Below, in pieces: positions 26,463 through 27,994 of a stretch of 64,000 bases of DNA; positions within the stretch are counted from its first letter, which is position 1, and every line of letters begins with the position of its first letter. The stretch lies in assembly GCF_045037415.1 (NCBI RefSeq), contig NZ_CP173438.1. The stretch is one strand, 5' to 3'. Source of the DNA: Escherichia coli. Lineage in GTDB: Bacteria > Pseudomonadota > Gammaproteobacteria > Enterobacterales > Enterobacteriaceae. The position numbers are program-made.

Positions 26463-27994
26463 TAATGATTTCTCGCGCGGGCAATCTTGCCCGCGCTTCT
26501 GCTCTCCCGGCGTAACCCGGATTTGCCGCTTATACTTGTGGCAAATGGACACGTTCAGGGAGGCATCAAGTGAAGAAACTCACCGATAAGCAAAAGTCCC
26601 GTCTCTGGGAGCTTCAGCGTAATCGTAATTTCCAGGCCAGTCGCCGTCTTGAAGGCGTCGAGATGCCTTTAGTCACTCTTACTGCCGCAGAGGCTTTAGC
26701 GCGCCTTGAAGCGCTGAGGAGGCACTATGAGCGATAAATTCGGCGAAGGGCGCGATCCATATCTCTACCCGGGTCTCGATATCATGCGTAACAAGCTCAA
26801 CATCCGCCAGCAGCAGCGGCTGGAACAGGCCGCTTACGAAATGACGGCGCTGCGTGCTGCGACCATTGAGCTTGGTCCGCTGGTGCGCGGTTTACCGCAT
26901 TTGCGCACTATCCATCGCCAGCTGTATCAGGATATTTTCGACTGGGCAGGGCAACTGCGTGAAGTTGATATTTATCAGGGAGATACGCCGTTCTGCCACT
27001 TTGCCTATCTCGAAAAAGAGGGCAATGCCCTGATGCAGGATTTGGAGGAAGAGAAGTATCTGACTAGCCTTGAGAAAGATAAATTCGTCGAGCGGTTGGC
27101 GCATTACTATTGTGAAATCAACGTGCTGCATCCCTTCCGGGTGGGAAGTGGTTTGGCACAGCGGATCTTCTTCGAGCAACTGGCGATTCATGCCGGATAT
27201 CAACTGAGCTGGCAGGGTATCGAAAAAGAGGCCTGGAATCAGGCAAATCAGAATGGGGCAATGGGGGATCTCACCGCGCTGCAGATGATATTTAGCAAAG
27301 TGGTAAGCGAAGTCGGGGAATCTGAGTAAAATAGCGCGGTTCTTTCGTACCGGAGCCGCCATGATCCTGCTTATTGATAACTACGATTCTTTTACCTGGA
27401 ACCTCTACCAGTACTTTTGTGAACTGGGGGCGGATGTGTTGGTTAAGCGCAACGATGCGTTGACGTTGGCGGATATCGACGCCCTTAAACCACAAAAAAT
27501 TGTCATCTCACCCGGCCCCTGTACGCCAGATGAAGCCGGGATCTCCCTTGACGTTATTCGTCACTATGCCGGGCGTTTGCCGATTCTTGGCGTCTGCCTC
27601 GGTCACCAGGCAATGGCACAGGCATTTGGCGGCAAAGTTGTGCGCGCCGCAAAGGTCATGCACGGCAAAACCTCGCCGATTACACATAATGGTGTGGGCG
27701 TATTTAAGGGGCTGGCAAATCCACTCACCGTGACACGCTACCATTCGCTGGTGGTGGAACCTGACTCATTACCGGAGTGCTTTGAAGTGACGGCCTGGAG
27801 CGAAACCCGCGAGATTATGGGGATTCGCCATCGCCAGTGGGATCTGGAAGGTGTGCAATTCCATCCAGAAAGTATTCTTAGCGAACAAGGACATCAACTG
27901 CTGGCTAATTTCCTGCATCGCTGATTTCTGATTGCTATTAAGTGATTTTTTATGCATATTTTGTGATTATAATTTCACATTGGTTTATGCGTAA

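Follow-up and report, generated by a model that had tools for sequence, protein, structure and literature searches.

The yhfG and fic genes of E. coli code for two proteins that were crystallised as a complex in 2016 by Stanger, Harms, Dehio and Schirmer, who renamed yhfG as ecficA and fic as ecficT (Stanger et al. 2016, PLoS One, PMC5033356). The proteins of strain K-12 assemble into a stable 1:1 complex (Tm 63 °C), as demonstrated by SEC-MALLS and crystallography, in which the two helices of YhfG (EcFicA) are fully engaged with Fic (EcFicT) and R146 of Fic is bound by the YhfG residues S24 and E28. The same study described an active-site motif with Leu in place of R1, a hydrophobic residue in place of D/E and Ser or Asn at its centre, and reported that the adenine pocket is retained in EcFicT, that R1 contacts the β-phosphate of ATP, and that a subgroup-specific pocket is conserved in the EcFicT clade. 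Neither auto- nor target-adenylylation was detectable, even with the E28G variant of YhfG, and the authors described the protein as "toxin-like", having found no activity. A fic deletion strain was viable and wild-type-like, and the fic-1 allele resulted in filamentation (PMC5033356). The biochemical mechanism of EcFicT is still termed elusive in a paper from 2026.

Two canonical class I FicTA modules, VbhT/VbhA of Bartonella schoenbuchensis and Fic-1/AntF of Pseudomonas bijieensis, have the fold, a small upstream partner with an [S/T]xxxE[G/N] motif and a salt bridge between the Glu of this motif and R2 in common with EcFicT/EcFicA. The Fic protein of the locus analysed here matches VbhT with an E-value of 7.6e-33 and Fic-1 with one of 1.3e-47, it shares the N-terminal DPY segment with VbhT, and the published rmsd values of the VbhT and Fic-1 structures to 5JFF amount to about 0.9–1.4 Å. 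The partner proteins differ in that VbhA consists of three helices and YhfG of two (PMC5033356). Moreover, VbhT and Fic-1 have an intact canonical signature, HPFREGNGRxxR, and modify GyrB by AMPylation (in the case of VbhT also ParE), whereas the Fic protein analysed here lacks R1, D/E and Asn, and VbhTA resides on a plasmid and is associated with conjugation, whereas yhfG and fic are vertically inherited core genes. Fic proteins of class II (FICD and EfFic, for instance) follow the same inhibitory principle, but their helix is located N-terminally in the same chain instead of on a separate polypeptide, and they switch between AMPylation and deAMPylation with canonical motifs in contrast to the degenerate one described here. 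Precedents for a FIC fold with an altered motif and a different donor are the Doc kinase and the phosphocholine transferase AnkX (PMC5033356); their motifs differ from that of EcFicT, and their substrates are known. The E. coli locus matters because its Fic protein gave the name to the whole family, and the question of its reaction and target has become more testable with the 2026 description of a class I Fic-antitoxin complex as a deAMPylase and with the natural single-chain variants of YhfG and Fic presented below.

Genomic setting and identity of the locus

The window, i.e. the whole stretch of DNA analysed, comprises 64,000 nucleotides of an E. coli genome (contig NZ_CP173438.1, assembly GCF_045037415.1), and all coordinates given below are window positions on the + strand. 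It represents core E. coli chromosome, with hofM-Q, aroKB, dam, trpS, yhfS-Z, cysG, nirCDB and tsgA on one strand and ppiA, yhfG, fic, pabA and argD in that order on the opposite strand; yhfK, crp, kefGB, tusBCD, rpsLG-fusA-tufA, chiA, bfr and the gsp cluster are found beyond argD. The yhfG-fic pair is accordingly flanked by the nirB-tsgA/ppiA side and by pabA-argD. The yhfG gene (26570..26737) codes for 55 amino acids from a GTG start to a TAA stop codon, and the fic gene (26727..27329) codes for a class I FIC-domain protein of 200 amino acids from an ATG start codon. Of 5426 complete E. coli genomes searched with a 1001-bp query over the yhfG-fic segment, 5425 gave a match, and the allele of the window (at least 99% identity over this query) was present in 561 complete E. 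coli genomes (~10%). At least 12 records showed 100% DNA identity, all of them annotated with both yhfG and fic. In these records the products are listed as "YhfG family protein" and "putative adenosine monophosphate-protein transferase Fic".

The best PDB matches of both proteins were the structures of the EcFicT/EcFicA complex (5JFZ/5JFF), with Fic corresponding to chain A and YhfG to chain B. Compared to the K-12 proteins, the Fic of the window is identical to EcFicT (UniProt P20605) at 191 of 200 residues (95.5%), the nine substitutions being R23K, H27R, I95L, G110K, V113T, G114S, A118D, S176N and A196V, and YhfG is identical to EcFicA (UniProt P0ADX5) at 53 of 55 residues (96%), the two substitutions being E48A and S51R. 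None of these affects the active site, the Fic motif or the inhibition motif SRRLEG of YhfG, and the interface residues named by Stanger et al. 2016 (PMC5033356) are unchanged, leaving an allelic variant only. The published specificity positions D10, P11, Y12, A36, T40, G55, Y67, F71, E79, Y83, E107, V139, L143, R146, A178 and M179 are likewise shared with K-12 EcFicT. The locus is therefore the long-known yhfG-fic pair (EcFicA-EcFicT), with which the Fic family was founded. The pair and its overlap, the degenerate motif, YhfG's inhibitory role and the synteny with pabA have all been published already, so that their detection in the window adds nothing to the record as a finding. A reading of the same DNA from its sequence alone (hereafter, the sequence-only reading) had taken the two genes for a pair of the antitoxin-toxin or inhibitor-enzyme type, which agrees with their assignment to the class I Fic module EcFicA/EcFicT with its co-crystal structures 5JFF and 5JFZ; the 55-residue open reading frame with its GTG start, strong ribosome-binding site and 11-nt overlap with fic was also located correctly. 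Having named absence of binding between YhfG and Fic as a possible refutation, it is met by the opposite in the published 1:1 complex. It missed the SRRLEG motif in YhfG and the conservation of the pabA adjacency across the Enterobacteriaceae.

YhfG is a protein gene with an inhibition motif

The product of the small gene exceeded the cut-offs of both relevant family profiles, scoring 86.3 bits against Pfam PF10832 (cut-off 22.6) and 126.6 bits against the NCBIfam equivalog NF007573 (cut-off 77). In the relatives from Salmonella, Klebsiella, Leclercia, Citrobacter and two Enterobacter loci, yhfG comprises 55–56 codons. Pairwise comparisons across five genera yielded dN/dS values of 0.05–0.18 outside of the overlap, which are approximate because synonymous sites are saturated (dS >1), and we conclude from these ratios that the small open reading frame encodes a protein under constraint. 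It carries the inhibition motif [S/T]xxxE[G/N] as SRRLEG at residues 24–29 (codons S24-R-R-L-E28-G29 at 26639..26656), with S24, E28 and G29 identical in the five genera. We also considered yhfG as a mere upstream open reading frame or leader that tunes the translation of fic instead of being a protein gene in its own right. The very short frame and its GTG start would suit such a leader, but the dN/dS values across genera, the family scores and above all the purification and crystallisation of the protein in complex with Fic speak against it, and we regard this explanation as hardly conceivable; an untranslated yhfG has already been refuted by the crystal structure.

DNA binding by YhfG was predicted in 2009 from its charge alone (Makarova et al.). 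The only Pfam match within the small protein is to the YhfG family itself, without a known DNA-binding domain.

The degenerate motif of Fic

The fic product scored 51.4 bits against Pfam PF02661 (cut-off 24) and 422.6 bits against the NCBIfam equivalog NF007672 ("putative AMP-protein transferase Fic", cut-off 181), the latter over residues 1–200 of 200. Its signature, H135-P-F-R-V-G-S-G-L-A-Q-R146 (residues 135–146, HPFRVGSGLAQR, codons at 27129..27164), contains the HxF loop between FIC helices 4 and 5 with the catalytic H135 as H135-P-F, and R2 (R146) is retained as well. Relative to the canonical motif HxFx[D/E]GNGRxxR, it deviates by V139 for D/E, S141 for Asn and L143 for R1. In the canonical motif, D/E serves in coordinating Mg2+, and R1 binds the β-phosphate of ATP. 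The motif had indeed been flagged as non-canonical from the sequence alone, and the accompanying guess that adenylylation may be altered or absent fits the published failure to detect any (PMC5033356).

All of the 120 closest homologues (76–96% identity) share the pattern HPF[RC][LIVF]G[SN]G[LMI][ATV]QR, in which H135, G140, G142 and R146 never vary, position 139 is occupied by L, I, V or F and position 143 by L, M or I without exception, and position 141 is either S or N. The dN/dS of fic amounts to 0.04–0.10 in pairwise comparisons across five genera, these values being approximate at dS >1, and purifying selection is strong on this gene as well as on yhfG. Both the dN/dS values and the invariance of the motif indicate that the degenerate Fic is maintained and not decaying. 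For a survey of more distant relatives, 1.84 billion cluster representatives were searched and the nearest 149 (representing 50%-identity clusters) examined; a recognisable motif was present in 129 of them, and 111 of these 129 showed the canonical HPFREGNGRxxR. Judged from this distribution, the motif with a hydrophobic residue at R1 is essentially confined to the enterobacterial clade of EcFicT itself. Two relatives apparently without a motif (P0126 and P0129) look like error-ridden reads and were set aside.

Signals for transcription and translation

Upstream of yhfG lies the terminator hairpin of ppiA (GCGCGGGCAATCTTGCCCGCGC, 26475..26496), by which ppiA is set apart from the yhfG-fic unit. 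It folds with −21.4 kcal/mol (z = −3.68 against shuffled sequences), and a DNA alignment of five genera shows a kept stem and a variable loop. A general scan for terminators in the window returned weak matches only, at chance level (7 found vs. 4.5 expected), and missed this hairpin. Further downstream lies a promoter block of 22 bases, TTGC(C/T)GCTTATACTTGTGGCAA (26523..26544), with the −10 hexamer TATACT at 26531-26536. The TATACT block is invariant in E. coli, Salmonella, Klebsiella, Leclercia and Citrobacter and is also found in Buttiauxella. In the sources cited for it by a review, the hexamer is described as the −10 element of an RpoS-dependent fic promoter without a −35 element (Utsumi 1993, Tanaka 1995, as cited in PMC5650638), and array experiments also showed RpoS-dependent expression of yhfG-fic. 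A scan with the σ70 consensus detected no promoter upstream of yhfG; this is expected and uninformative because the published promoter is of the RpoS type and has no −35 element. A search of the entire window against Rfam yielded no RNA family.

The Shine-Dalgarno sequence of yhfG (GGGAGG, 26558..26563) is located 6 nt upstream of the GTG, and CAGGGAGG is invariant across five genera; the start position is common to them all, Klebsiella using ATG and the remaining four GTG. The Shine-Dalgarno sequence of fic (GAGGAGG, 26716..26722) lies 4 nt before the ATG, still within the 3' end of yhfG, and the stretch GGAG(G/T)CACTATGAGCGATAAAT is invariant in seven of seven two-gene loci. The 11-nt overlap of both genes (ATGAGCGATAA, 26727..26737) includes the start codon of fic as well as the stop codon of yhfG and recurs with exactly this length in Salmonella, Klebsiella, Leclercia, Citrobacter and two Enterobacter loci. 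Shine-Dalgarno sequence, overlap, promoter block and terminator stem are all conserved while synonymous sites elsewhere are saturated; for the overlap, the TATACT box and the two ribosome-binding sites, the invariance extends over six genera. According to the scheme that we propose, an RpoS-type stationary-phase promoter just past the ppiA terminator would drive the joint transcription of yhfG and fic, and transcription would probably continue into pabA. Because the start codon and the ribosome-binding site of fic lie inside the end of yhfG, both proteins are most likely made together and at similar levels. This arrangement points to translational coupling from yhfG to fic; the dual coding of the overlap alone could account for its invariance.

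Natural fusions of YhfG and Fic

Several relatives contain proteins of 194–200 residues that match both the YhfG and the Fic family of Pfam above the cut-offs. In Buttiauxella (B. izardii, B. noackiae, B. gaviniae and Buttiauxella sp. WJP83), Dryocola and Scandinavium, a single fused gene (in Buttiauxella of the WP_120065544.1 type) occupies the slot between ppiA and pabA and codes for residues 1–33 of YhfG joined to residues 34–200 of Fic. This corresponds to a deletion of 157 bases, the exact distance between the yhfG and fic start codons. Enterobacter huaxiensis and some strains of E. hormaechei possess a fusion of 194 residues in the same slot and no separate yhfG, while other Enterobacter strains have retained two genes. 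In a neighbour-joining tree of the Fic part, the fusions of the Buttiauxella type fall among two-gene relatives, and those of Enterobacter are placed on a long branch and are by identity nearest to two-gene Enterobacter and Leclercia, from which we deduce at least two independent fusion events. The single-chain layout of the Buttiauxella and Enterobacter proteins resembles that of class II Fic proteins.

The fused forms retain a Ser-x3-Asp/Glu motif, and the catalytic His, the glycines of the phosphate nest and R146 are invariant in all 42 of them. They have lost the N-terminal DPY lock, contain Phe, Leu or Met in place of R0, and show Ser-Lys/Arg instead of Y83-Q84 in the flap, which is the state of the canonical relatives. 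An AlphaFold model of a fused protein reached a pLDDT of 79 and a pTM of 0.82, with pLDDT values of 81–94 for the N-terminal helix (residues 7–25), and a Foldseek search with this model recovered 5JFZ/5JFF. Stanger et al. 2016 (PMC5033356) do not use the term fusion, and we found no description of one in the literature searched; as such an absence is no proof, we only state that the YhfG::Fic fusion may be previously unreported.

Function of the YhfG-Fic pair

Taken together, the pair very probably represents a vertically inherited, chromosomal enzyme-regulator pair of the stationary phase and not a mobile addiction module, and its Fic protein would employ a chemistry independent of ATP or run in reverse. 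We favour this assignment because the locus is core and syntenic, its deletion is harmless, and the inhibitor is fused to the enzyme in several lineages. The pair is neither mobile nor patchy, as evident from the presence of the yhfG-fic segment in 5425 of 5426 E. coli genomes and from the identical slot between ppiA and pabA in nine of nine loci examined, which stem from nine genus-level lineages. YhfG is wrapped around Fic in the 1:1 complex, with the end of its first helix (SRRLEG) entering the active site and S24 and E28 holding R146. Fic has kept the catalytic His, a glycine-rich phosphate nest and R146, but because the residues that hold ATP and magnesium are replaced (V139, S141, L143), it should not be an ATP-dependent AMP-transferase. 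It would instead act on a target hydroxyl using another phosphate-containing donor than ATP, or catalyse the removal of a modification in the reverse direction. The conservation of the protein would suit an enzyme with another substrate.

A classical type II toxin-antitoxin system, in which YhfG is degraded and Fic then AMPylates gyrase and topoisomerase IV to arrest growth as known for VbhT, YeFicT and PaFicT, was predicted in 2009 (Makarova et al.), and the pair is still routinely listed as such. The small overlapping gene upstream, the inhibition motif, the tight complex and the filamentation of the fic-1 strain are in line with a toxin. The same applies to a statement in a 2024 review, with Harms 2015 as its primary source, that ectopic EcFicT strongly inhibits the growth of E. 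coli; this conflicts with the "toxin-like" but inactive protein of the primary group, so the secondary record on toxicity is not consistent. However, a motif without R1, D/E and Asn, the lack of any auto- or target-adenylylation in the hands of the primary authors even with YhfG E28G, the viable and wild-type-like deletion strain, the core and syntenic position and transcript data that depart from the usual toxin-antitoxin pattern are all at odds with such a system. In addition, with the helix covalently fused to Fic in at least two lineages, the inhibitor cannot be degraded away, which is incompatible with a classical addiction module. We therefore consider a type II toxin-antitoxin system very improbable. 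A pseudoenzyme, i.e. a dead binding protein or scaffold with a structural or regulatory role and YhfG as its partner, would explain why more than 40 years have passed without an activity being found, why three substrate-binding residues are replaced and why the deletion has no obvious phenotype. It fails to explain the invariance of His135, the phosphate-nest glycines and R146 in 120 of 120 close homologues and 42 of 42 fused forms as well as the conservation of the subgroup-specific pocket, and a site-blocking helix would be pointless on a dead enzyme, yet it is strongly selected and even fused to it. This makes a pseudoenzyme quite unlikely in our view.

Another possibility is that activity resides in the YhfG-Fic complex as such, which would be a de-modifying hydrolase of the deAMPylase type, with E28 of YhfG taking part in catalysis and YhfG being a subunit and not an antitoxin. 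The idea of YhfG as a subunit was prompted by the 2026 paper on Fic-1-AntF (PDB 8WT0), the nearest canonical relative of known structure (E = 1.3e-47 to the Fic of the window), which was identified as a deAMPylase that requires E28 of AntF and a stable complex for activity. The residue numbering of both systems matches (H135, R146, S24, E28), and H135, R146, the adenine pocket and S24, E28 and G29 of YhfG are kept in ours. The missing R1, which contacts the β-phosphate of ATP, is not obviously required for binding an AMP-protein, and the tight complex (Tm 63 °C) and the recurrent helix-Fic fusions with their S-x3-[E/D] motif would also agree with a deAMPylase. On the other hand, Fic-1-AntF needs a divalent metal and has E139 in an acidic cleft, where EcFicT contains V139 and A36, the type A fusions carry Asp instead of Glu at the inhibitory position and Ile or Val instead of Gly, and E. 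coli K-12 is not known to contain an AMPylated substrate. We thus rate a deAMPylase as unlikely. The pair may also be no toxin-antitoxin system at all but a two-subunit stationary-phase enzyme that would have abandoned ATP-dependent AMPylation and would now undo a nucleotide or phospho modification, as Fic-1-AntF does by means of E28 of AntF, or else work with a hydrophobic diphosphate as its donor. V139 and A36, at positions that are acidic in Fic-1, speak against this proposal too. If this rather doubtful proposal were true, the independent fusions with the YhfG helix in the Buttiauxella-type and Enterobacter lineages would identify YhfG as an indispensable component of the enzyme, and the fixed linkage to pabA could hint at the metabolism of PABA or folate. 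YhfG is absent from the main text of Hu et al. 2009.

Linkage to pabA

The pabA gene (27361..27924), coding for component 2 of aminodeoxychorismate synthase, is the conserved downstream neighbour of fic. It begins after a spacer of 31 nt (27330..27360), in which a GGAG at 27352-27355 precedes the pabA start. We compared the region with those of Salmonella, Klebsiella, Leclercia, Citrobacter, Enterobacter and Buttiauxella, examining nine loci. The order ppiA-yhfG-fic-pabA-argD, with the fused gene in some cases, was found in every comparison locus, fic comprised 200 codons in each of those with two genes, and the spacing between fic and pabA was 29–33 nt in nine of nine loci. The same adjacency across the Enterobacteriaceae was shown by Stanger et al. 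2016 (PMC5033356, S4 Fig), who found the close homologues of EcFicT restricted to this family, located between ppiA and pabA and inherited vertically. The association with pabA, which had been noted as odd from the sequence alone, is therefore not a peculiarity of this genome. An old genetic link between the two functions is apparent from the table of a review, in the entry for fic, where the product is given as "Fic (PABA or folate)" (PMC5650638).

The terminator scan detected no terminator-like hairpin in the fic-pabA spacer, and the close spacing together with its conservation suggests that yhfG-fic is co-transcribed with pabA. Komano and colleagues reportedly observed in 1991 that the fic phenotype is suppressed by PABA or folate, and Tran and Nichols are said to have worked on the pabA promoter. 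A block of the sequence TA(A/G)AATAG(C/G)GCGG across the fic stop codon is conserved in the nine loci, and the TA(A/G)AAT within it (TAAAAT at 27327-27332 in the window) may be a second −10 box belonging to a promoter specific for pabA. If so, the operon link would be partly positional and its functional meaning weaker.

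Gene fusions of yhfG and fic

In several enterobacterial lineages, the slot between ppiA and pabA, which holds yhfG and fic in the window (26570-27329), is occupied by a single gene whose product is 194-200 aa long, and yhfG is missing as a gene of its own. The gene is represented by a Buttiauxella type (L006:1011-1613) and an Enterobacter huaxiensis type (L007:3001-3585), the L-numbers denoting the loci of these relatives. The encoded proteins consist of residues 1-33 of YhfG, which include the inhibitory helix, joined to Fic starting at about residue 34-41. Compared to the two-gene arrangement, the Buttiauxella locus is shorter by 157 nt and the Enterobacter locus by 175 nt; each of these deletions puts the fused gene back in frame. 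The YhfG::Fic fusion has arisen at least twice. The fused forms were described merely as a "distinctive N-terminal variant" in the structural study of the EcFicT/EcFicA complex (Stanger et al. 2016, PMC5033356).

Two changes relative to the window Fic were observed in fused proteins of both lineages (homologs P0122, P0290, P0320 and P0348). The R0 arginine of the FIC motif (R138) is replaced by Phe, Leu or Met, and the flap residues Tyr83-Gln84 are replaced by Ser-Lys/Arg. These changes took place after fusion and independently in each of the two lineages. The Ser-Lys/Arg flap corresponds to the state of canonical AMPylating relatives ("DISKGDT").

Variants of the locus in E. coli

In some E. 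coli assemblies, the yhfG/fic overlap is the site of frameshifts or deletions that produce a full-length YhfG-Fic fusion (window counterpart 26570-27329); in others, the fic stop codon is affected by frameshifts, leading to read-through into pabA (window counterpart 27320-27500). Variant proteins of these kinds recovered by the homology searches are P0002 (252 aa, a cluster of 15), P0006 (233 aa) and P0003/P0004 (244/267 aa). Because a few of the frameshift or deletion variants are located on contigs of 0.75-1 Mb, these candidate alleles are not all read errors.

The window fic itself belongs to a minority allele group, since only 561 of the 5425 genomes with a match to the 1001-bp query segment showed at least 99% identity to this allele across it. 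Four of its nine differences from K-12 Fic (G110K, V113T, G114S and A118D) are grouped at residues 110-118 (27054-27080), a patch distant from the active site.

Sequences adjacent to fic and other window genes

The fic stop codon lies within the block TA(A/G)AATAG(C/G)GCGG (27327-27339), which is kept in nine loci of the examined lineages, more than coding demands. The block resembles a -10 box and could be an internal pabA promoter.

Coordinate mapping from a matching annotated genome placed crp, the cAMP receptor protein gene, at about 31438-32070 on the minus strand, about 4 kb downstream of fic with argD and yhfK intervening. cAMP-CRP is required for the phenotype of the classical filamentation allele fic-1; the nearness of the two genes is probably a coincidence.

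The type II secretion cluster contains the prepilin peptidase gene gspO (51978-52650, minus strand), which is split between two ORFs; these are 113 and 133 aa long, lie in different frames and overlap. The gene is annotated as frameshifted in the identical reference genome.
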